Source of the DNA: a virus
Virus record (IMG/VR): IMGVR_UViG_3300047388_000429
Coordinates: 6,426-70,425 of that record
Reading direction: 5' to 3' (one strand)
DNA: 64,000 bases
How positions within the stretch are numbered: position 1 is the first letter of the stretch; each line of letters opens with the position of its first letter. A program made the translations under genes and the position numbers. Under the pieces are notes generated by a model, which was not told the DNA's origin, did not search any database, and worked only from the letters and a program-made list of their open reading frames with translations. Positions 5,605 to 20,344 of this stretch are shown here, one piece after another.

Positions 5605-6581
5605 TGTCATTCAGCTATAGCCCCAACGACTTCAAAGAAGCCACGCCGATCAACACCTACGTCAAAATGGCGCTCGCCGGTCCGCCGAACTCCGGCAAGA
5701 CCGTGTCGGCGCTCAGACTGGCCGCAGGATTTGGCGGTGAAACCGCAGTGATCGACACCCAGAACAAGCGGGCGATGCGATATGCCAACGCCTTCAAATT
5801 CAGGCACTTCGATTTGCAGCCCCCGTTCTCGGGAGAGCACTTCGGGGCGGCGATCAATGCGGCGGCCAAGGCGGGCTTTAATAACATCATCGTCGACGCC
5901 ATGAGCGACGAACATGAAGGCCCTGGCGGCCTCTTGGATTATTCGCATCAATTTCAGGAACGCAAAACCGCCGATATTGAAGATGGTCCGAAACGCGACA
6001 AGGCCAAAGAAAAATATCTTATGTCCTCGTTGATCGTCCCCAAGATGCAACGCACGAATTTAATTCAATTCGGGATCAGCCGTTTGGACGTCAATTTCAT
6101 CCTCTGCTTCCGCGCGAAGCCGAAGATTAAGATGGTCAAGGAAAAATGGGAAAACGCGTCGACCGGAAAATCTGGGGAGAAAAACGTCCCGACCGATCAG
6201 GGCATTCAACCGATTGGTGGAAACGAATTCTGGGGTGAAATGAACATCGTGGCGATCATGGACGAGGGTTCCAAAGGGGCTCCGGACTGGGAAGAACAGG
6301 CCTGCCGGATCAATGAATTTCCGCCCGCAGAACTCACGGCGTATCTTCACAGCGTAAAACAATTCGATGAAGAGTGCGGCCGGAGATTAGTTGAATTCAA
6401 CACGCCGGTACGGTTCATCTTGAAGACCAAGAGCGCCGAGAAGGCCTATCCGACGATGGACCGCTGGCGCGCGGCCGCCGCGGCATTGGTCTCCAAGATC
6501 ACGCCGGAACAAAAAGCGGAACTTATAAGCCTCAATCCGACATACATCGCGGAGTTCGAAAAGATGGAGGTTAAGTTATGA
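5604..6581 (+). CDS. AAA/RecA-fold ATPase (Sak4-like annealing protein)
   Basis: Walker A GPPNSGKT, VIDT, IIVD; near the exonuclease gene. Confidence 0.75.
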   Translation: MSFSYSPNDFKEATPINTYVKMALAGPPNSGKTVSALRLAAGFGGETAVIDTQNKRAMRYANAFKFRHFDLQPPFSGEHFGAAINAAAKAGFNNIIVDAMSDEHEGPGGLLDYSHQFQERKTADIEDGPKRDKAKEKYLMSSLIVPKMQRTNLIQFGISRLDVNFILCFRAKPKIKMVKEKWENASTGKSGEKNVPTDQGIQPIGGNEFWGEMNIVAIMDEGSKGAPDWEEQACRINEFPPAELTAYLHSVKQFDEECGRRLVEFNTPVRFILKTKSAEKAYPTMDRWRAAAAALVSKITPEQKAELISLNPTYIAEFEKMEVKL

Positions 6582-14723: not shown

Positions 14724-14769
14724 CTTCCTCCAAAATAATCGCCGAGGGGACTGCCCTCGGCGATCAATG

Positions 14770-15018
14770 TCAGGCGCCCGTTACCTCTGTGGCAACTTCT
14801 GTCGCAGTTGTCTCCACCGTTTTTTCAACAGTTTCTGCGCCGGCCGCGACCGTAGTTTCGACGGCCGTTACTTCGATTTCTTTCTTTTCGACCGCAGCCT
14901 TTTCGTGCGCCAACAGCGCATCGATCTTGGCGTGAGCCTCAGCAAGGACAGCCTCGATTTCAGCCTTGAGATGTTCGCCTGCGGTTTCGACTTTTGTTAT
15001 CAGGTCTTGTAGGCTCAT
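14770..15018 (-). CDS. Hypothetical acidic protein
   Basis: AAGGA RBS; hairpin downstream. Confidence 0.6.
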   Translation of the reverse strand: MSLQDLITKVETAGEHLKAEIEAVLAEAHAKIDALLAHEKAAVEKKEIEVTAVETTVAAGAETVEKTVETTATEVATEVTGA

Positions 15019-15075
15019 GATCTATTTTCCTTTTTAAGATTTAAGACTTTGGTTTGTAGATTCGCGAGCTCCATC

Positions 15076-15477
15076 CTACGCTGCTGCGGAGGCAGACGCT
15101 GTATCTGTGCCATTGCCGTTTTGATCTCCCGCTGGACTGGCTACCACCGGAGGCGCTGATACCGCTACCTGAATAGCGGAAAGAACTCCGTTCGTTACCG
15201 CCTGTGCGATTACATTGGCGTCCTGATCAGTGATATCGATATTCAGAGACAGCGCCTGCGCCTTGATAAGCACGGCCGCCGATTGAATGGCCGCCTGCGG
15301 CTGTTGTCCGCCAGCGATGGTCGCGAGCGCCAACGTCGTCGGCTCAGTGAGATCAAGGGCGGAAAATTTGGTGACCAGGCCATTGAGCATCTCAATGTTG
15401 GCCTGCAGCAACGTATAAAGAGACGGGGCCGGTGCCTTGAAGAGCGGGATGACTTTATCGACTAAAGCAGTGGACAT
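15076..15477 (-). CDS. Hypothetical protein
   Basis: AAGGAAG RBS, 133 aa. Confidence 0.6.
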   Translation of the reverse strand: MSTALVDKVIPLFKAPAPSLYTLLQANIEMLNGLVTKFSALDLTEPTTLALATIAGGQQPQAAIQSAAVLIKAQALSLNIDITDQDANVIAQAVTNGVLSAIQVAVSAPPVVASPAGDQNGNGTDTASASAAA

Positions 15478-15559
15478 ATTACTTCCTTTCAGATTTTGAA
15501 TCCGCGGGGATGCGGTAAAAGAATCATGGCAGATATTTTTTTATTGCACAATCGAAAAG

Positions 15560-15633
15560 TGGTTCTGGGGGCACGGATCGAACGTGCATTACCTGATTCA
15601 AAGTCAGGGGGCCTACCATTAGCCGACCCCAGA
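15560..15633 (-). tRNA. tRNA-Gln(UUG)
   Basis: CCTGA-CT TTG AA-TCAGG arm, TTCGA T-loop, CCA. Confidence 0.92.
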
Positions 15634-15638
15634 AAAAG

Positions 15639-15711
15639 TGGGTTGTGCGCGGGATTTGAACCCGATACGCCGAGTCACAATCGGCTGCTTTGCCGTTAAG
15701 CTACGCACAAA
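15639..15711 (-). tRNA. tRNA-His(GUG), 4-bp T-stem
   Basis: GCCGA-TT GTG AC-TCGGC; C73-CCA. Confidence 0.85.
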
Positions 15712-15713
15712 CT

Positions 15714-15787
15714 TGGCAGAGGGCCTGTGAATCGAACACAGATTAGCCGTTTTGGAGGCGGCGAGCTTGCCATTAGCAGAGCCCTCT
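15714..15787 (-). tRNA. tRNA-Trp(CCA)
   Basis: GCCGC-CT CCA AA-ACGGC; G73-CCA. Confidence 0.88.
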
Positions 15788-15801
15788 AAATTGGTCGGCG
15801 A

Positions 15802-16209
15802 TCACTTGCCGTGTTTTAAATATTTCTCCCGTCGTACTCTCTGTTGTTTTTCCTTAGTCCATGTACTCCACTCATCTCTACGCCTTCCCGAGCGGGCAGC
15901 GTCCCTTTCTCCCTTAGACGCATAGAGTTGATTAGGCTTCGAAGCCGCAGAACAGTTGCAACTCAAATGCGAGAACGCGATGTTTTCTAGGTCAAAGAAA
16001 GATGCCAAAGGATCAGCCGCTCCCATCCATGCCTCCTTGTGCTCGATGGACATATCCGACGAAGATATGATCTCATTTTGACACCTGAAACACTTGTTAA
16101 GGCCAGCTTTACACACTAGTGAGAAAAGAACATTCTTTCTCAGTTTATGTGTGGCAGTACCTATGGGCATCCCGAGTAAGGACGCTTTCTTGTCGTTATG
16201 TTTGCTCAT
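15802..16209 (-). CDS. HNH-like endonuclease inserted at the 3' end of tRNA-Pro
   Basis: CFRC...SIEH...NIAFSHLSCN; GGAGG RBS. Confidence 0.75.
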   Translation of the reverse strand: MSKHNDKKASLLGMPIGTATHKLRKNVLFSLVCKAGLNKCFRCQNEIISSSDMSIEHKEAWMGAADPLASFFDLENIAFSHLSCNCSAASKPNQLYASKGERDAARSGRRRDEWSTWTKEKQQRVRREKYLKHGK

Positions 16210-16243
16210 CGTTTACCTCCGTATTTAATGTTGCAAACGAATG

Positions 16244-16319
16244 TCGGTACGGCAGGATTTGAACCTGCGATCCTCTGGTCCCAAGCCAGATGGGGACGGC
16301 CAGACTCCCCTACGTACCG
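16244..16319 (-). tRNA. tRNA-Pro(UGG), no encoded CCA
   Basis: TCTGG-CT TGG GA-CCAGA; C1:G72, A73. Confidence 0.9.
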
Positions 16320-16326
16320 TTTATTT

Positions 16327-16403
16327 TGGTGGGCCGCCTCGGACTTGAACCGAGAGAAAGCTTGTTCCTAAGACAAGTGCGTCTGCCATTCCGCCAGCAG
16401 CCC
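16327..16403 (-). tRNA. tRNA-Leu(UAG), short variable region
   Basis: CTTGT-CT TAG GA-ACAAG; Leu-type D arm; A73-CCA. Confidence 0.88.
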
Positions 16404-16404
16404 A

Positions 16405-16487
16405 TGGTGCGAGTAATCAGAATCGAACTGATACGCCGAAGCGAGCGATTTTAAGTCGCTTGCGTCTACCTATTCCGCCATACTCGC
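16405..16487 (-). tRNA. tRNA-Leu(UAA)
   Basis: AGCGA-CT TAA AA-TCGCT; variable arm; CCA. Confidence 0.92.
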
Positions 16488-16512
16488 TTATAAAATTCTC
16501 CTTTCGCGCAAT

Positions 16513-16544
16513 AAAAAAACCCCGCCTTGTTTAGGGGCGGGGTT
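16513..16544 (-). terminator. Attenuator terminator 3 (upstream of the Leu-Leu-Pro-Trp-His-Gln block)
   Basis: AACCCCGCC-CCTAAACAA-GGCGGGG followed by TTTTTTT. Confidence 0.88.
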
Positions 16545-16570
16545 CAGAGCTTTCGCACTCTTACCGTATA

Positions 16571-16642
16571 TTACCGCCCAAGCATAAAGGCTCCCAGTGG
16601 GAGTTGCTGTAAATGCCAGGGCTGTAACAAATTCTTTTTCAT
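16571..16642 (-). CDS. Leader peptide 3, MKKNLLQPWHLQQLPLGAFMLGR
   Basis: Codons 5-16 are only L/Q/P/W/H, matching the downstream tRNAs; stop 26 nt before the terminator. Confidence 0.85.
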   Translation of the reverse strand: MKKNLLQPWHLQQLPLGAFMLGR

Positions 16643-16648
16643 TGTTTT

Positions 16649-16677
16649 ACAATATGATGATTCTTTGAGAATTGCAA
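16649..16677 (-). promoter_or_regulatory. Sigma70-like promoter giving a leaderless leader-3 transcript
   Basis: TTGCAA-17 nt-TATTGT-6 nt-ATG. Confidence 0.7.
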
Positions 16678-16683
16678 GAGAAA

Positions 16684-16759
16684 TGGTCCGTCCAGAGAGA
16701 CTCGAACTCCCAGCCTGAAACTTAGAAGGTTCCTGCTCTTCCAATTGAGCTATGGACGG
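16684..16759 (-). tRNA. tRNA-Arg(UCU)
   Basis: GGAAC-CT TCT AA-GTTTC; CCA. Confidence 0.92.
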
Positions 16760-16760
16760 A

Positions 16761-16849
16761 TGGTGCATGGGGATGGATTTGAACCACCGATGTTAACCCA
16801 AAGGGACCTGATCTACAGTCAGGCGCATTCGCCGCTCTGCCACCCATGC
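16761..16849 (-). tRNA. tRNA-Tyr(GUA)
   Basis: CCTGA-CT GTA GA-TCAGG; long variable arm; CCA. Confidence 0.92.
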
Positions 16850-16858
16850 GTTATCTTT

Positions 16859-16947
16859 TGGCGGATGCTGAAGGGGTCGAACCTTCGTGAGCCAGCGAGG
16901 CTCCGCAGTTTAGCAAACTGCTCGTTTTACCATTCACGCAAGCATCC
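16859..16947 (-). tRNA. tRNA-Ser(GCU)
   Basis: GCAGT-TT GCT AA-ACTGC; long variable arm; G73. Confidence 0.92.
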
Positions 16948-16955
16948 AGAAAAAT

Positions 16956-17043
16956 TGGCGGAGGGTAAAGGAGTCGAACCATCAGCGCATTCAAGGCTGG
17001 CGACAGTTTTCAAGACTGTTTGTCCCCGCGGACGCTACCCTCC
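16956..17043 (-). tRNA. tRNA-Ser(UGA), probable 8/4 fold
   Basis: ACAGT-CT TGA AA-ACTGT; acceptor GGAGGGTA/TACCCTCC (8 bp). Confidence 0.85.
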
Positions 17044-17117
17044 GGACTCACGAACCGGACTCGAACCGGCATAAGCGATTTTGCAGACCGCTGCATAACC
17101 TTTCTGACCACCGCGAG
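17044..17117 (-). tRNA. tRNA-Cys(GCA)
   Basis: GCGGT-CT GCA AA-ATCGC; U73; ends in CC and abuts G1 of tRNA-Ser. Confidence 0.85.
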
Positions 17118-17123
17118 AGAAAT

Positions 17124-17205
17124 TGGCACGCCCGACAGGAGTTGAACCTGCATCTTCCATCCGATTACCTTTGTCGGCGTTCGTAGCACCGAGGGTTACG
17201 GGCGT
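17124..17205 (-). tRNA. Rearranged tRNA-Arg(ACG) lacking a conventional D arm
   Basis: Acceptor ACGCCCG/CGGGCGT-G-CCA and canonical T arm; anticodon arm CGGTG-CT ACG AA-CGCCG comes right after the acceptor 5' strand. Confidence 0.7.
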
Positions 17206-17206
17206 A

Positions 17207-17282
17207 TGGTACGACGAACCGGAGTCGAACCGGCACCCTGCGGGTCCGGAACCCACCGCTCTTCCAGTTGAGCTTCCGTCGT
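17207..17282 (-). tRNA. tRNA-Arg(CCG)
   Basis: GTGGG-TT CCG GA-CCCGC; CCA. Confidence 0.9.
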
Positions 17283-17286
17283 AAAT

Positions 17287-17361
17287 TGGCGATCCTTGGG
17301 GGTGCTGCCCCCCCGACCTCCGCCGTGACAAGGCGGCGCTCTGCCGTTGAGCTAAAGGACC
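17287..17361 (-). tRNA. tRNA-Asp(GUC) with atypical T-loop
   Basis: CCGCC-TT GTC AC-GGCGG; T-loop GGCAGCA; G73. Confidence 0.85.
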
Positions 17362-17367
17362 ATGAAT

Positions 17368-17454
17368 TGGTGCCAGCCACAGGATTCGAACCTGCGATGA
17401 TCTTGCGATGACGGTTTACAAAACCGTTGCCTTCAACCACTCGGCAAAGCTGGC
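17368..17454 (-). tRNA. tRNA-Thr(UGU) with long variable arm
   Basis: ACGGT-TT TGT AA-ACCGT; G1:C72, C2:G71. Confidence 0.82.
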
Positions 17455-17789
17455 AATTTTATTATTCCAGCGTGAACTTTACGATGACAATTAGAGCAAA
17501 GAACAACGCACTTCTTTAATTCTTTTTCAACTTTTTTAAGAGAATGATTTGTAAAATTACTGATATTTATATTCATATCTTTTTTCTTTGGATCTAGATG
17601 ATGGAAGTCCAAACAATAAGGTTCTTTCTCTCCGCAAACCTTACATTTAAGTTTTTTCTTCATCTCTCTAAATTCTAACCGTCGTCTTTTTCTCCACGCA
17701 TTATTCAATTCCATGCGACGTTTTTTATTACGTGGATACCAGATTTCCCGATGGTATTTGGCGATTTCGCCTTTTGTTTTGTAACTCAT
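17433..17789 (-). CDS. HNH endonuclease within the tRNA array
   Basis: CKVCG...LDFHH...CVVLCSNCHRKVH; stop lies inside the tRNA-Thr D-loop. Confidence 0.8.
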   Translation of the reverse strand: MSYKTKGEIAKYHREIWYPRNKKRRMELNNAWRKRRRLEFREMKKKLKCKVCGEKEPYCLDFHHLDPKKKDMNINISNFTNHSLKKVEKELKKCVVLCSNCHRKVHAGIIKLPALPSG

Positions 17790-17818
17790 AAAAACACTAT
17801 ATAGCATGTTACAAAAAT

Positions 17819-17897
17819 TGGTAGCAGAGATCGGATTCGAACCGATGATAACAGCGTTATGAGCACCGTGCTTTGGGCCAGACTAAGCTACTCTGCG
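17819..17897 (-). tRNA. tRNA-Met(CAU), elongator-like (Ile2 not excluded)
   Basis: CGGTG-CT CAT AA-CGCTG; G2:C71, C3:G70; C11:G24; C1xU72 mismatch. Confidence 0.82.
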
Positions 17898-17903
17898 TCA
17901 ATT

Positions 17904-17978
17904 TGGTGCGCTGGCAGGGAGTTGAACCCTGTCCTCAAGCTTGGAAGGCTCGCATGCACCCACCAACAACTCCAGCGC
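17904..17978 (-). tRNA. tRNA-Gly(UCC)
   Basis: CGAGC-CT TCC AA-GCTTG; weak D stem; A73. Confidence 0.82.
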
Positions 17979-17985
17979 ATTATCT

Positions 17986-18060
17986 TGGCGGGGAACTGTG
18001 GAATTGAACCACATACGCGCGGACCTTCAAACCGCCGCTCTACCGATGAGCTAGATCCCC
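17986..18060 (-). tRNA. tRNA-Phe(GAA)
   Basis: GCGGT-TT GAA GG-TCCGC (U31xU39); G73. Confidence 0.82.
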
Positions 18061-18126
18061 AAAGTTAAACACGCGGCCGTGTGAGTTTCGGCTCTTACAC
18101 CATCGTGGCAGACGGGTTGCGTGAAT

Positions 18127-18202
18127 TGGCTCCCGAGAGTGGACTCGAACCACTGACAACTTGATTAACAGTCAAGGACTCTACCAACTGAGCTACTCGG
18201 AA
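18127..18202 (-). tRNA. tRNA-Asn(GUU)
   Basis: CTTGA-CT GTT AA-TCAAG; G73-CCA. Confidence 0.93.
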
Positions 18203-18213
18203 TAATTTTTATT

Positions 18214-18299
18214 TGGCCGGCGGGGCAGGACTTGAACCTGCGACCTCTTCATCCAGTGCGCATGGCATGAAGCGCTCTAACCAACTGAGCTACCCGCCG
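18214..18299 (-). tRNA. tRNA-like RNA with elongated anticodon arm, identity undetermined
   Basis: Canonical acceptor, D and T arms and CCA, but 16 nt (TGCCATGCGCACTGGA) replace the 7-nt anticodon loop. Confidence 0.75.
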
Positions 18300-18331
18300 A
18301 AAAATCATCATATCAACAATGTTCAATAACC

Positions 18332-18366
18332 AAAACAAAAACCCCGCTTCTTTTAGGAGCGGGGCT
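18332..18366 (-). terminator. Attenuator terminator 2 (upstream of the 14-gene tRNA block)
   Basis: AGCCCCGCTCCT-AAA-AGAAGCGGGG followed by TTTTTGTTTT. Confidence 0.85.
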
Positions 18367-18393
18367 TTGTGTTTTTAACAGGGAGAAAAAGAT

Positions 18394-18468
18394 TTACACA
18401 AATAGCCCCTCGCCGCTTCTTCCGAAGCCGCGGTCATAGGACATATTTGATGTGCATATCGTTTTCAT
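18394..18468 (-). CDS. Leader peptide 2, MKTICTSNMSYDRGFGRSGEGLFV
   Basis: Codons 5-19 use only C/T/S/N/M/Y/D/R/G/F, which are all ten amino acids of the downstream block. Confidence 0.85.
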   Translation of the reverse strand: MKTICTSNMSYDRGFGRSGEGLFV

Positions 18469-18474
18469 TCTTTC

Positions 18475-18503
18475 AGTATCTATCAGATTCGCTAAAAAGT
18501 CAA
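18475..18503 (-). promoter_or_regulatory. Sigma70-like promoter giving a leaderless leader-2 transcript
   Basis: TTGACT-17 nt-GATACT-6 nt-ATG. Confidence 0.7.
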
Positions 18504-18504
18504 A

Positions 18505-18578
18505 TGGTACTCGGTGAAGGAATCGAACCATCGTCAACTGCATGTAAGGCAGCCACTCTCCCATTGAGCTAACCGAGC
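18505..18578 (-). tRNA. tRNA-Val(UAC)
   Basis: GCTGC-CT TAC AT-GCAGT; CCA. Confidence 0.9.
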
Positions 18579-18628
18579 ACATCCGGCGCAGCGATTGTTT
18601 GGGCCATGACAGTCGCTGCGCCGAAACT

Positions 18629-18705
18629 TGGTGGACCCTGCGAGAATCGAACTCGCCTCAGTCTGCTTGCAAAGCAGTCTCGCCCCCCTTGGTACATGAG
18701 AGCCC
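18629..18705 (-). tRNA. tRNA-Ala(UGC)
   Basis: CTGC-TT TGC AA-GCAG; G3:U70; atypical D arm. Confidence 0.85.
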
Positions 18706-18712
18706 ACATATT

Positions 18713-18787
18713 TGGTCGGTGCGATGGGAATTGAACCCATTTTATACGCCTTAAAAGGGCGCTGCCTGACCGGCCGGCTCCGCACCG
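18713..18787 (-). tRNA. tRNA-Lys(UUU)
   Basis: GCGCC-CT TTT AA-GGCGT; CCA. Confidence 0.88.
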
Positions 18788-18791
18788 TAAT

Positions 18792-18866
18792 TGGTTGAGG
18801 CGAAGGGAATCGAACCCCACGTCTAACGGTTATCAACCGCTTGCACTGCCATTGTGCTACACCTCA
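18792..18866 (-). tRNA. tRNA-Ile(GAU)
   Basis: AGCGG-TT GAT AA-CCGTT; CCA. Confidence 0.9.
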
Positions 18867-18890
18867 GAAATCTGTTTCCTCCCGCATAAT

Positions 18891-18916
18891 AAAAAACCCG
18901 CCTTTGTGGGGCGGGT
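18891..18916 (-). terminator. Attenuator terminator 1 (upstream of the Ile-Lys-Ala-Val block)
   Basis: ACCCGCC-CCACAAA-GGCGGG followed by TTTTTT. Confidence 0.85.
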
Positions 18917-18944
18917 GCAAAATTCAAGACGAATTTGACCAGCC

Positions 18945-18998
18945 CTATTTGTCGGGTTTAATCGCTTTCGCCACAATCTTTACAGTCTCTCGTCTCAT
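18945..18998 (-). CDS. Leader peptide 1, MRRETVKIVAKAIKPDK
   Basis: GAGGA RBS; codons 6-14 are only V/K/I/A, matching the downstream tRNAs; too short to appear in the ORF track. Confidence 0.85.
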   Translation of the reverse strand: MRRETVKIVAKAIKPDK

Positions 18999-19016
18999 CT
19001 CGTTCTTCCTCTACTT

Positions 19017-19090
19017 TGGCGCGGCCAACGGGAATTGAACCCGTGTTGTCCGATTGAAAGTCGGCTTTCCTGCCGTTAGAAGATGGCCGC
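19017..19090 (-). tRNA. tRNA-Glu(UUC)
   Basis: CCGA-CT TTC AA-TCGG; G73-CCA. Confidence 0.9.
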
Positions 19091-19187
19091 TTAAAGTAGG
19101 CTAAGCCATCTGTATTTTTCAGGGGTTTGCTACGCTGGCCCCCTGCGGCCTCTGTACGTCCCAAACCGTTAAGTGAGGGACCAAAAT

Positions 19188-19262
19188 TGGTTGCGAAGCT
19201 TGGAATTGAACCAAGTACCTGCTGCTTATGAGGCAGCCGAGCTACCGATGCTCTACTCCGCG
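19188..19262 (-). tRNA. Initiator-like tRNA-fMet(CAU)
   Basis: C1xA72, A11:U24, CAT anticodon; anticodon stem GCTGC/GCAGC. Confidence 0.85.
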
Positions 19263-19268
19263 ATTTTC

Positions 19269-19297
19269 ACTTTATAGGAGTTGTAATTTTATTTCAA
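19269..19297 (-). promoter_or_regulatory. Sigma70-like promoter at the head of the tRNA array
   Basis: TTGAAA-17 nt-TAAAGT, 6 nt before tRNA-fMet. Confidence 0.7.
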
Positions 19298-19306
19298 GAG
19301 AAAAGT

Positions 19307-19729
19307 TTAGGCGAGCACGCGCGCGGCCGCGGCCTCGAAAACCGCCTCTTCATACCAGAACGGCAACGCCGAATCGGGACACGTCCCTTGTTCATGAAGG
19401 ACAATCGCTTGTGTCAAGCGAATCAGGTTGTCGGGGACTTCGATATCAAAATAATCCGTTTGATCGACGCCGCAATGACGGCAAACATCAAGGACACAGA
19501 CAGCGGCCTTGTCCGGCGAGGAATAACGAGCAATAAAAGCCGCGATGTGCTCGAGGTCATCTTTTCGCTGAAAAGATAAAAGAGTTTTCATGAGCGCGGC
19601 GATTCCGCTGACGGGGCTATCAAAACGAATTAACCTTGGATCATCTTGCAGCGTGCTTTGGGCTACGCATGCTCTCCCATTGTGCTCGAGCTTGCCAGGA
19701 TTGTTGAGAATGATAGACCACGGTGTCAT
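19307..19729 (-). CDS. Putative lysozyme-like virion/lysis protein
   Basis: NNPG motif, F.SP..GI.A, AI..HEQG. Confidence 0.55.
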   Translation of the reverse strand: MTPWSIILNNPGKLEHNGRACVAQSTLQDDPRLIRFDSPVSGIAALMKTLLSFQRKDDLEHIAAFIARYSSPDKAAVCVLDVCRHCGVDQTDYFDIEVPDNLIRLTQAIVLHEQGTCPDSALPFWYEEAVFEAAAARVLA

Positions 19730-19974
19730 CTATGGCCTCCCTCGAGCCATGCCAGGACCAGCGTCCATGCCGTTGAAAAGACTCCCATGACGCCGGTTCC
19801 TATCCACATGATTTTTTGATGGCGCTCGACCTTTGGTTTTATTTCTTTGATGGCCGCCTGAGCGACGGCGAGATCAGACGTTAACTTTGGAATAGTAGAT
19901 GTATTTTTTTCAATGTTGCTTACGCTGCTCTGCAGCTGGCCTAGGACTCTAAATATTTCATCATTGCTCGACAT
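19726..19974 (-). CDS. Holin-like or other membrane protein
   Basis: Coiled coil plus C-terminal TM segment. Confidence 0.5.
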   Translation of the reverse strand: MSSNDEIFRVLGQLQSSVSNIEKNTSTIPKLTSDLAVAQAAIKEIKPKVERHQKIMWIGTGVMGVFSTAWTLVLAWLEGGHR

Positions 19975-19975
19975 G

Positions 19976-20344
19976 TCACGGCACCGTCAGTTGTTTCCTA
20001 AAAACTATTTGACCAGGTGAAAGAAGCATATCTGCATTTGAAACCGTATAAACATTTCCGATCGGTGAAGTTATTGTCGGCTCCCATTTATAGGTTCCGG
20101 TGACCAGATCAACGGTTTGCGTTCTCAGGATTTTAAATTGAAATGCTCCCCTGTTCGTCGTCTGATTGGGGATGGTAACGGTATGATCACCAGTCGTGTA
20201 TGTCGCAATAATTGAACCGTCTAAATTAAAAAGCTCGACCTTGATCGTGTAACCCGTCAAATCGATTAAAGAATTATCGCTTCTGTTCCTGACCAAGGAC
20301 TGAATGGGGATGTCATTATTGGTGATCGCTGAAAAGTTCAACAT
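19976..20344 (-). CDS. Ig-like virion accessory protein
   Basis: IDLTGYT...GTYKWE pattern; tail region. Confidence 0.5.
   Translation of the reverse strand: MLNFSAITNNDIPIQSLVRNRSDNSLIDLTGYTIKVELFNLDGSIIATYTTGDHTVTIPNQTTNRGAFQFKILRTQTVDLVTGTYKWEPTITSPIGNVYTVSNADMLLSPGQIVFRKQLTVP

Follow-up and report, generated by a model that had tools for sequence, protein, structure and literature searches.

Putative leader-peptide attenuators ahead of tRNA gene blocks in a soil phage

Leader elements within the tRNA array

The window analyzed here is a stretch of 64,000 nucleotides (positions 6,426 to 70,425) from the complete, 70,425-bp IMG/VR virus record IMGVR_UViG_3300047388_000429, which has direct terminal repeats. 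It contains an array of tRNA genes, which extends from 19262 to 15560 on the minus strand and is located between tail-fibre-like genes and the lysis region. In this array 23 tRNA genes were predicted by ARAGORN, every one of them on the minus strand. The array is split into three blocks, each with its own leader open reading frame (ORF) and terminator ahead. The element upstream of the third block, called element 3 with the leader L3, is the main subject of this analysis. It had been predicted from the letters of the sequence to be an attenuator gating a block of tRNA genes for leucine (two), proline, tryptophan, histidine and glutamine. This is supported in silico by a match of the codon set beyond chance, by conservation and by mutually exclusive folds which are switched by the position of the ribosome. 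The features named in the original prediction were all found in place, on the minus strand. Element 3 and its block comprise:

16649..16677, minus strand: putative sigma-70-type promoter of leader 3, TTGCAA (16677..16672), 17-nt spacer, TATTGT (16654..16649), 6 nt to the ATG
16642..16571, minus strand: leader ORF 3, 23 codons plus stop, MKKNLLQPWHLQQLPLGAFMLGR; codons ATG AAA AAG AAT TTG TTA CAG CCC TGG CAT TTA CAG CAA CTC CCA CTG GGA GCC TTT ATG CTT GGG CGG TAA
16595..16630, minus strand: regulatory run, codons 5-16, LLQPWHLQQLPL; also strand 1 of the 1:2 helix
16591..16603, minus strand: hairpin within the ORF, CUCCCACUGGGAG (CTCCCACTGGGAG), followed by the U-rich CCUUUAUG (from folding)
16574..16579, minus strand: strand 2, GGGCGG, directly before the UAA stop; pairs with strand 1 or with the 5′ arm of the terminator
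16546..16561, minus strand: internal hairpin AGAGU-GCGAAA-GCUCU, which closes the antiterminator loop (from folding)
16513..16542, minus strand: intrinsic terminator, CCCCGCCCC (16542..16534), UAAACAA loop, GGCGGGG (16526..16520) and U7 (16519..16513)
15560..16487, minus strand: block predicted to be gated, with tRNA-Leu(UAA), Leu(UAG), Pro(UGG), an HNH ORF, Trp, His and Gln
ARAGORN tRNAs before the HNH ORF: Leu(taa) 16487..16405, Leu(tag) 16403..16327, Pro(tgg) 16319..16243
ARAGORN tRNAs after the HNH ORF: Trp 15787..15714, His 15710..15639, Gln 15633..15560

The twelve codons which had been highlighted as restricted to the amino acids of the block are codons 5-16 of leader ORF 3, and they encode only leucine, glutamine, proline, tryptophan and histidine. 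The GGGCGG motif is formed by the final two sense codons and is, as had been proposed, complementary to CCGCCC within the 5′ arm of the terminator. Folding also reproduced the hairpin AGAGT-GCGAAA-GCTCT. The hairpin CTCCCA-C-TGGGAG exists as well, but it folds with 5 bp and a 3-nt loop, not with the 6 bp and the 1-nt loop that had been assumed. In the RNA, this CUCCCA/UGGGAG hairpin and the U-rich tract behind it form a candidate RNA polymerase pause hairpin inside the ORF. Terminator 3, CCCCGCC(CC)...GGCGGGG plus U7, has a predicted stability of -13.6 to -18 kcal/mol. Its stem begins 28 nt downstream of the end of leader ORF 3, and 25 nt lie between its end and tRNA-Leu(UAA).

A block-matched leader ORF is found ahead of each of the three array-internal terminators. 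The two sister elements, with the leaders L1 and L2, are:

18890..18998, minus strand: sister element 1, Shine-Dalgarno (SD) sequence GAGGAAG, ORF 18998..18945 (MRRETVKIVAKAIKPDK, then stop), terminator 18916..18896 plus T-run
18338..18503, minus strand: sister element 2, promoter TTGACT-17-GATACT (18503..18475), ORF 18468..18394 (MKTICTSNMSYDRGFGRSGEGLFV, then stop), terminator 18368..18338

L1 is followed by tRNA-Ile, Lys, Ala and Val, and L2 by a block for eleven amino acids with Asn, Phe, Gly, a CAU-tRNA, Thr, Asp, Arg, Cys, Ser, Ser, Tyr and Arg. Downstream of these two elements only tRNAs and HNH insertions are located. The only tRNAs of the array which do not lie behind a leader are its first two, an initiator-like tRNA-Met and tRNA-Glu.

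A related phage, G001, is represented by one IMG/VR contig of 67,376 bp with a portal protein that is 74% identical and with the same tRNA array (positions in this relative are given in the numbering of L028). Just after the terminators of L3 and L1, the SD-like motifs AAGGAGAA and GGAGGAAACAG were observed (16505..16490 and 18885..18870, minus strand). They are kept in G001 (L028 3550-3565 and 975-990), 10-20 nt ahead of the first tRNA of the block, and no plausible start codon follows them. Furthermore, a stretch of about 33 nt after the terminator of L2 (GGTTATTGAACATTGTTGA..TATGATGATTTT; 18333..18301, minus strand; L028 1495-1528) is near-identical in both phages, whereas the surrounding leader has diverged. 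This stretch could be a promoter or a processing signal.

Codon content, conservation and folding of the leaders

In the six frames of the window, five runs of at least eight codons are restricted to {L,P,W,H,Q}. The run of L3 is the longest with 12 codons, the other four having eight, and it alone contains all five residues. When the window was shuffled 40 times by mononucleotides, the longest such run had a mean of 7.8 and a maximum of 11 codons. No other {I,K,A,V} run in the window is as long as VKIVAKAIK of L1, which has 9 codons against 7 in the next, and the 17-codon run of L2 is the sole one with all 11 residues of its set among the 47 runs of at least 13 codons. An automated scan, which combined the tRNA calls of ARAGORN with a generic terminator finder and all ORFs ending at most 90 nt upstream of a terminator, gave run probabilities of 2.7e-7 for L3 of the window, 2.6e-7 for L3 of G001 and 6.7e-6 for L1. 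Taken together, the three leader runs partition 19 amino acids exactly like the tRNA blocks, which has a probability of about 8.6e-8 for a random partition. We conclude that the observation is real and that chance falls far short of accounting for it. Of the 12 matched codons of L3, 10 are readable by standard wobble and all 12 with four-way wobble, according to our reading of the ARAGORN anticodons.

In G001, leaders are located at the same three places (MLRETNKIVAKAIKPIK; MKTISTSMYSSDRTFNRGCGAGHLV; MKTNLLQLWHQPLPQLGVFVLGRM). Within the runs, 15 residues differ between the window and G001, and 14 of these stay in the set of the respective block (L3 6/6, L2 8/8, L1 0/1). Half of the L3 run (6 of 12 residues) is changed in G001 with the restriction to the set being kept. 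The composition of the leaders is therefore conserved, whereas the order of the residues and the peptide sequence are not, which fits selection on the codons that are read and argues against a functional peptide. G001 retains the CUCCCA/UGGGAG hairpin in the form GCUCCCACAACUGGGAGU with UUUUGUG behind it, and the internal hairpin of L3 is found at the same place with the same structure but a different sequence (AAUAACU/AGUUAUU).

Further relatives come from fragments. A soil-metagenome contig, which is about 96% identical over 16243..16983, encodes the same L3 peptide with one synonymous change and shows a compensatory change from A-U to C-G at the base of the terminator stem. A third relative, the 11-kb fragment L031, contains L1 (MRRETNKIVAKAIKPDR), followed by an Ile-like and a Lys tRNA up to the end of the contig. 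In addition, a 6.8-kb soil-metagenome contig (contig 17 of run X3) seems to join tRNA-Val directly to tRNA-His.

The start regions of the leaders are of two kinds. The SD sequence of L1 precedes its start by 7 nt, and this leader would be translated from transcripts of the array promoter, which the promoter scan placed at 19297..19269. In L2 and L3, a -10-like hexamer is located exactly 6 nt ahead of the start and is itself preceded by a -35 element at a spacing of 17 nt; the pair of L2, TTGACT-17-GATACT, was called by the scan. For L3 this geometry is kept in G001 (TTGCTT-17-TATCGT-6-ATG). Since L3 has no SD sequence and starts 6 nt after a conserved -10-like hexamer, its ORF is probably leaderless. 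In G001, the region between block 2 and L3 (L028 3079-3390) comprises an extra small ORF and then a strong terminator (GCTGGGGG..CCCTCAGC plus T-run), both absent in the window. A strong terminator lies directly upstream of the promoter-like region of L3 in G001, so that a local promoter is needed there. L2 and L3 may thus be leaderless mRNAs, each of their blocks forming its own unit of promoter, attenuator and tRNA genes.

In the full-length minimum free energy (MFE) structure of L3, the matched codons (UGUUACAGCCCUGGCAU) pair with AUGCUUGGGCGGUAAUA in a 1:2 helix, and the terminator also forms. For constrained folding, the nascent RNA was cut just after the 5′ arm of the terminator and the nucleotides covered by the ribosome were forced to be single-stranded. 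The pairing of the nine arm bases of L3 then depended on the ribosome as follows:

A site at codons 4-16: 8/9 arm bases paired, partner GGGCGG region, with the AGAGU/GCUCU hairpin bracing
A site at codon 18: 5/9 paired, partial
A site at codon 20: 2/9 paired, arm mostly free
A site at codon 22 and at the stop: 0/9 paired, arm free
No ribosome: 2/9 paired, the 1:2 helix forms and the arm is nearly free

A position-dependent switch between 1:2, 2:3 and 3:4 helices was obtained in this way for 6 of 6 leaders (three elements in two phages). In each of them the stall window for antitermination coincides with the matched codons, which for L3 means codons 4-16 versus 5-16, and the unmatched C-terminal codons are located where a stall would no longer favour antitermination. 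Compared with shuffled sequences, the folds of the nascent RNA have a higher stability (z from -2.4 to -4.1).

Proposed regulation and alternative explanations

We consider it likely that element 3 acts by ribosome-mediated attenuation of transcription through a leader peptide, as in the trp/his/ilv type, and that it controls tRNA genes and not biosynthetic enzymes. This is strongly supported in silico by the anatomy, the statistics, the conservation and the position-dependent alternative folds. The translation of the leaders, the leaderless start, the pausing and stalling and the conditional read-through are what we infer from these features. Transcription would start at the local promoter, the mRNA would probably be leaderless, and a ribosome would translate the 23-codon leader while the polymerase pauses at the CUCCCA/UGGGAG hairpin. 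If codons 5-16 are decoded fast, the ribosome would reach the UAA stop and cover GGGCGG (strand 2), so that the 3:4 terminator would form and transcription would stop before tRNA-Leu. Any slow Leu, Gln, Pro, Trp or His codon would stall the ribosome on strand 1. In that case GGGCGG would be free to pair with CCGCCC, as a 2:3 helix braced by AGAGU/GCUCU, and the polymerase would read through into the genes for the Leu, Leu, Pro, Trp, His and Gln tRNAs. More tRNA would in turn bring back fast translation of the leader and termination, which would make a negative feedback loop. The same logic would apply to L1 with Ile, Lys, Ala and Val and to L2 with its block for eleven amino acids.

Several observations weigh against this interpretation. 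At the codon level, CCC and CUC in L3 can be read by the UGG and UAG anticodons only through four-way wobble, and UCC and GGC in L2 also depend on four-way wobble. Moreover, the CGC codon of L2 is not readable by the Arg tRNAs of the window (CCG, UCU), and an AUA codon needs the CAU tRNA of the block to be of the Ile2 type. The L1 run of G001 opens with Asn, which is outside the set. A low-depth L1 variant from a soil metagenome (MRRETKKIAAKAIKPDK), pieced together from two low-depth contigs (run X3; contigs 17, 21 and 22 are the soil relatives), has lost both Val codons, and its leader was seen without its tRNA block. The amino acid sets per block are identical in the window and in G001, so that the two full genomes offer no differential test of leader against tRNA content. 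L2 and L3 lack an SD sequence, and the promoter of L3 fits 8 of 12 consensus positions, which is below the threshold of the scan, and was not called.

Further points against the interpretation concern the RNA structures. The 2:3 helix is short, with 5-6 G-C pairs and a few flanking pairs, and the control by shuffling gives modest support: shuffles of the upstream segment match or beat its arm pairing in 16-33 of 300 cases in five of the leaders, and in L2 of the window they do so in 141 of 300. In L3 from G001, the antiterminator is part of the MFE structure even when no ribosome is placed. Equilibrium folding of the full-length L3 and L2 invariably yields the terminator, and the switch must therefore be kinetic, as in trp. 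Finally, a sensor of this kind cannot distinguish low tRNA from low amino acid.

This last point, that a stall does not separate a shortage of tRNA from one of the amino acid, also speaks for another explanation, in which the leaders, by being translated, would sense how well the cell translates in general or how well it is supplied with amino acids. They would then gate or time downstream genes (the ORFs 15477..15076 and 15018..14770, then the lysis region) or insulate the blocks, and would not serve tRNA homeostasis. After tRNA-Gln no strong terminator is found (15559..14736, minus strand) until one near 14767..14736, behind an 82-aa ORF. Read-through at attenuator 3 may therefore also transcribe the two ORFs, which lie just upstream of the endolysin gene. 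We regard this explanation as unlikely, given that it does not account for the exact agreement of each leader with the amino acids of its own block, and with those of no other, and that elements 1 and 2 have only tRNAs and HNH insertions downstream. It is improbable, too, that the ORFs act without control of termination, in that leader translation, or direct pairing of codons and anticodons with the tRNAs in the manner of a T-box with many specifiers, alters the processing or stability of the pre-tRNA or sequesters tRNAs. Such pairing is available by construction, as the downstream tRNAs find the complements of their anticodons in the leader RNA, and the unexplained SD-like motifs conserved just after the L1 and L3 terminators also speak for it. 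However, the matched triplets are all in one frame, from the ATG to a stop placed on strand 2, and a canonical terminator with a position-dependent antiterminator is found in 6/6 leaders. A T-box-like element was rejected, because neither T-box features nor an Rfam match to the T-box were seen.

The terminators might also be plain, unconditional ones between transcription units and the small ORFs due to chance or non-functional. Terminators at such positions are common, eight other phage arrays work without such leaders, and the antiterminator is short and sometimes matched by shuffles. Against this stand the run and partition probabilities given above and the 14 of 15 substitutions within the set, as well as start, stop and frame being kept in two or three phages. 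This explanation is strongly disfavoured and very unlikely, and chance ORFs were rejected on these grounds. Equally, the reading of the ORFs as functional micropeptides was rejected. Their being kept in two phages would agree with it, but the residue order is scrambled with the composition being conserved, whereas the opposite is expected of a peptide that has to fold or to bind a partner, and we give this reading hardly any weight.

Beyond the attenuator itself, we tentatively propose that each module is a self-contained sensor and effector, although our confidence in this wider proposal falls short of even. A leaderless mini-ORF would sample the decoding of the module's own amino acids, and replacement tRNAs would be switched on when any of these runs short, e.g., by decay of host tRNAs or cleavage by a host anticodon nuclease. 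The array would thereby form a closed-loop tRNA homeostat, which together with the unregulated tRNA-Met and tRNA-Glu would span all 20 amino acids, and tRNA genes would for the first time be seen under the control of leader-peptide attenuation. Phage tRNA arrays are usually seen as constitutive helpers for codon usage or as spares against host defence. If the proposal is true, the array of this lineage would be regulated by demand, with the genetic code partitioned into three independently sensed modules. The timing of phage tRNA production would become directly testable, and the modules would provide a small, naturally occurring blueprint from which synthetic sensors of the decoding capacity for chosen codons could be built. 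For other genomes, the search image would be a terminator-linked mini-ORF with a composition equal to the downstream tRNA set.

Further features of the array and comparison with known systems

Matches to PHROG (portal or minor head protein, large terminase, tail sheath and endolysin) identify the virus as a tailed phage with a contractile tail. Its nearest cultured relatives by the portal protein are 42-46% identical and comprise Pantoea phage Kyle, Burkholderia Bm1, Xanthomonas Carpasina, Wifcevirus and PB1-like phages. No close relative was found when the phage collection was searched by DNA. The public runs in which the stretch was found are soil metagenomes only, namely three DNA runs in the form of contigs; no RNA run was found to contain it.

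Within the array, the following features were found in addition to the leader elements:

19262..19188, minus strand: tRNA at the head of the array, CAU anticodon, C1-A72 mismatch by eye
17807..17433, minus strand: HNH homing-endonuclease ORF between the CAU tRNA and Thr
17361..17290: extra tRNA from Rfam, anticodon GTC, Asp by our own reading
17043..16960: extra type-II tRNA from Rfam; Ser(tga) in ARAGORN at a relaxed threshold
16209..15802, minus strand: HNH homing-endonuclease ORF between Pro and Trp, absent in G001

The CAU tRNA at the head of the array appears by eye to be initiator-like, as the C1-A72 mismatch is a hallmark of initiator tRNAs. The spacer between it and tRNA-Glu is 97 nt long in the window versus 25 nt in G001. 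Overall, the tRNA set is near minimal and complete, with one tRNA per amino acid and mostly U at the wobble position, as would be fitting for a phage which at times has to substitute for the tRNA pool of its host. In G001 the HNH ORF sits between Asp and Arg (L028 about 2072-2490). The HNH ORFs thus occupy different sites of the array in the two phages and are therefore independent insertions.

Three degenerate or unusual tRNA-like sequences were also observed. The gene at 18299..18214 (minus strand) scores 58.4 bits as a tRNA in Rfam and is reported by ARAGORN as 'tRNA-???' with a 2-letter anticodon. Its anticodon loop is enlarged to about 14-16 nt by eye, and no such gene is present at that position in G001. 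In G001, the tRNA-like gene at L028 1852-1926 scores 31.5 bits and is called as Thr(tgt) only at the relaxed ARAGORN threshold; by eye, it seems to have extra bases before CUUGUAA. Finally, the 89-nt spacer 17206..17118 (minus strand) between tRNA-Arg(ccg) and tRNA-Cys has the look of a degenerate tRNA by eye, with an acceptor stem, a T arm and a CCA end, and was called by neither ARAGORN nor Rfam.

The distribution of the system was followed with proteins and nucleotide patterns. In IMG/VR, the protein just upstream of the array has no relative, and the protein just downstream is found in G001 only, with none in the metagenome contigs. The portal protein gave five loci in IMG/VR with G001 alone being close, and of three records checked, only G001 has the tRNAs. 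The back-translated DNA pattern of the L1 core was found in G001 and in the 11-kb fragment L031. The same two were matched by a 17-nt motif after the stop, besides two chance matches without tRNAs, and a 19-nt motif after the L2 terminator matched G001 only. Among metagenome contigs, the pattern of the L3 hairpin plus strand 2 gave 11 matches, none of them (0/11) with tRNAs and about at chance level. In GTDB genomes the L1 pattern gave 7 matches, again without tRNAs (0/7).

Other phages also carry arrays of 5-27 clustered tRNA genes, which are often interrupted by HNH genes, like the T5-like EscoHU1, the Felixounavirus EF202P1, the P. putida phage KoPa-4, the Vibrio phage PVA8 and others. In eight such arrays no terminator-linked leader matched to the downstream tRNAs was detected; six had no candidate at all, and the best p among the rest was 0.48. 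With this small sample and a crude terminator finder, rarity is not proven. A full-text literature search, with subscription journals outside it, gave no report of leader-peptide attenuation of tRNA genes in the portions of text it covered. To our knowledge, leader-peptide attenuation is known for amino acid biosynthesis, a few synthetases and resistance genes, and not for tRNA genes.

The T-box senses the status of tRNA by binding one uncharged tRNA via a specifier codon and the T-box loop, and no ribosome is involved. Element 3 would resemble it in sensing tRNA status and in having a terminator/antiterminator switch upstream of translation-related genes. It differs from it by its ORF, which has a start and a stop codon, and by the lack of any T-box motif: with E values up to 1 allowed, Rfam did not match the T-box to the window from 15000-20000 or to L028 600-4100. 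L3 of the window has no Rfam match to Trp_leader or Thr_leader either. L3 of G001 reached 22.4 bits against Trp_leader (RF00513; cut-off 41) and L2 of the window 22 bits against Thr_leader (RF00506; cut-off 55). These scores agree with the attenuator interpretation. They are below the thresholds, so that there is no sequence homology and the leaders are not members of these families.

In the pheST operon with its pheM leader, a synthetase gene is under leader-peptide attenuation. Part of PMC2965389 describes a His leader upstream of hisS/hisZ in bacilli as leader-peptide attenuation of aminoacyl-tRNA synthetase genes. As in pheST/pheM and hisS/hisZ, the phage elements would attenuate a component of translation that serves the sensed amino acid. 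While pheST and hisS control a synthetase for one amino acid, the phage elements would control the tRNA genes themselves, for many amino acids together.

In Proteobacteria, ribosome-mediated attenuators regulate amino acid biosynthetic operons, with trpL, hisL, leuL and pheL as well as the multivalent thrL and ilvL. The phage elements share with them the short leader ORF with regulatory codons, the stop beside strand 2, the 1:2, 2:3 and 3:4 helices and a terminator with a GC-rich hairpin and a U-run, and the mixed regulatory codons are like those of ilvL and thrL. Background on leader-peptide attenuators of amino acid operons is given in parts of PMC2965389 and PMC1183508. Unlike these attenuators, the elements described here are phage-borne, are predicted to regulate tRNA genes and have a run which mixes 4, 5 or 11 amino acids matched to the tRNA block. 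Two of the three leaders are probably leaderless mRNAs, and the phage output, the tRNA, would feed back directly on the sensed step, decoding. A known mechanism would here be put to a new use, which has so far been seen in a single small lineage of soil phages.

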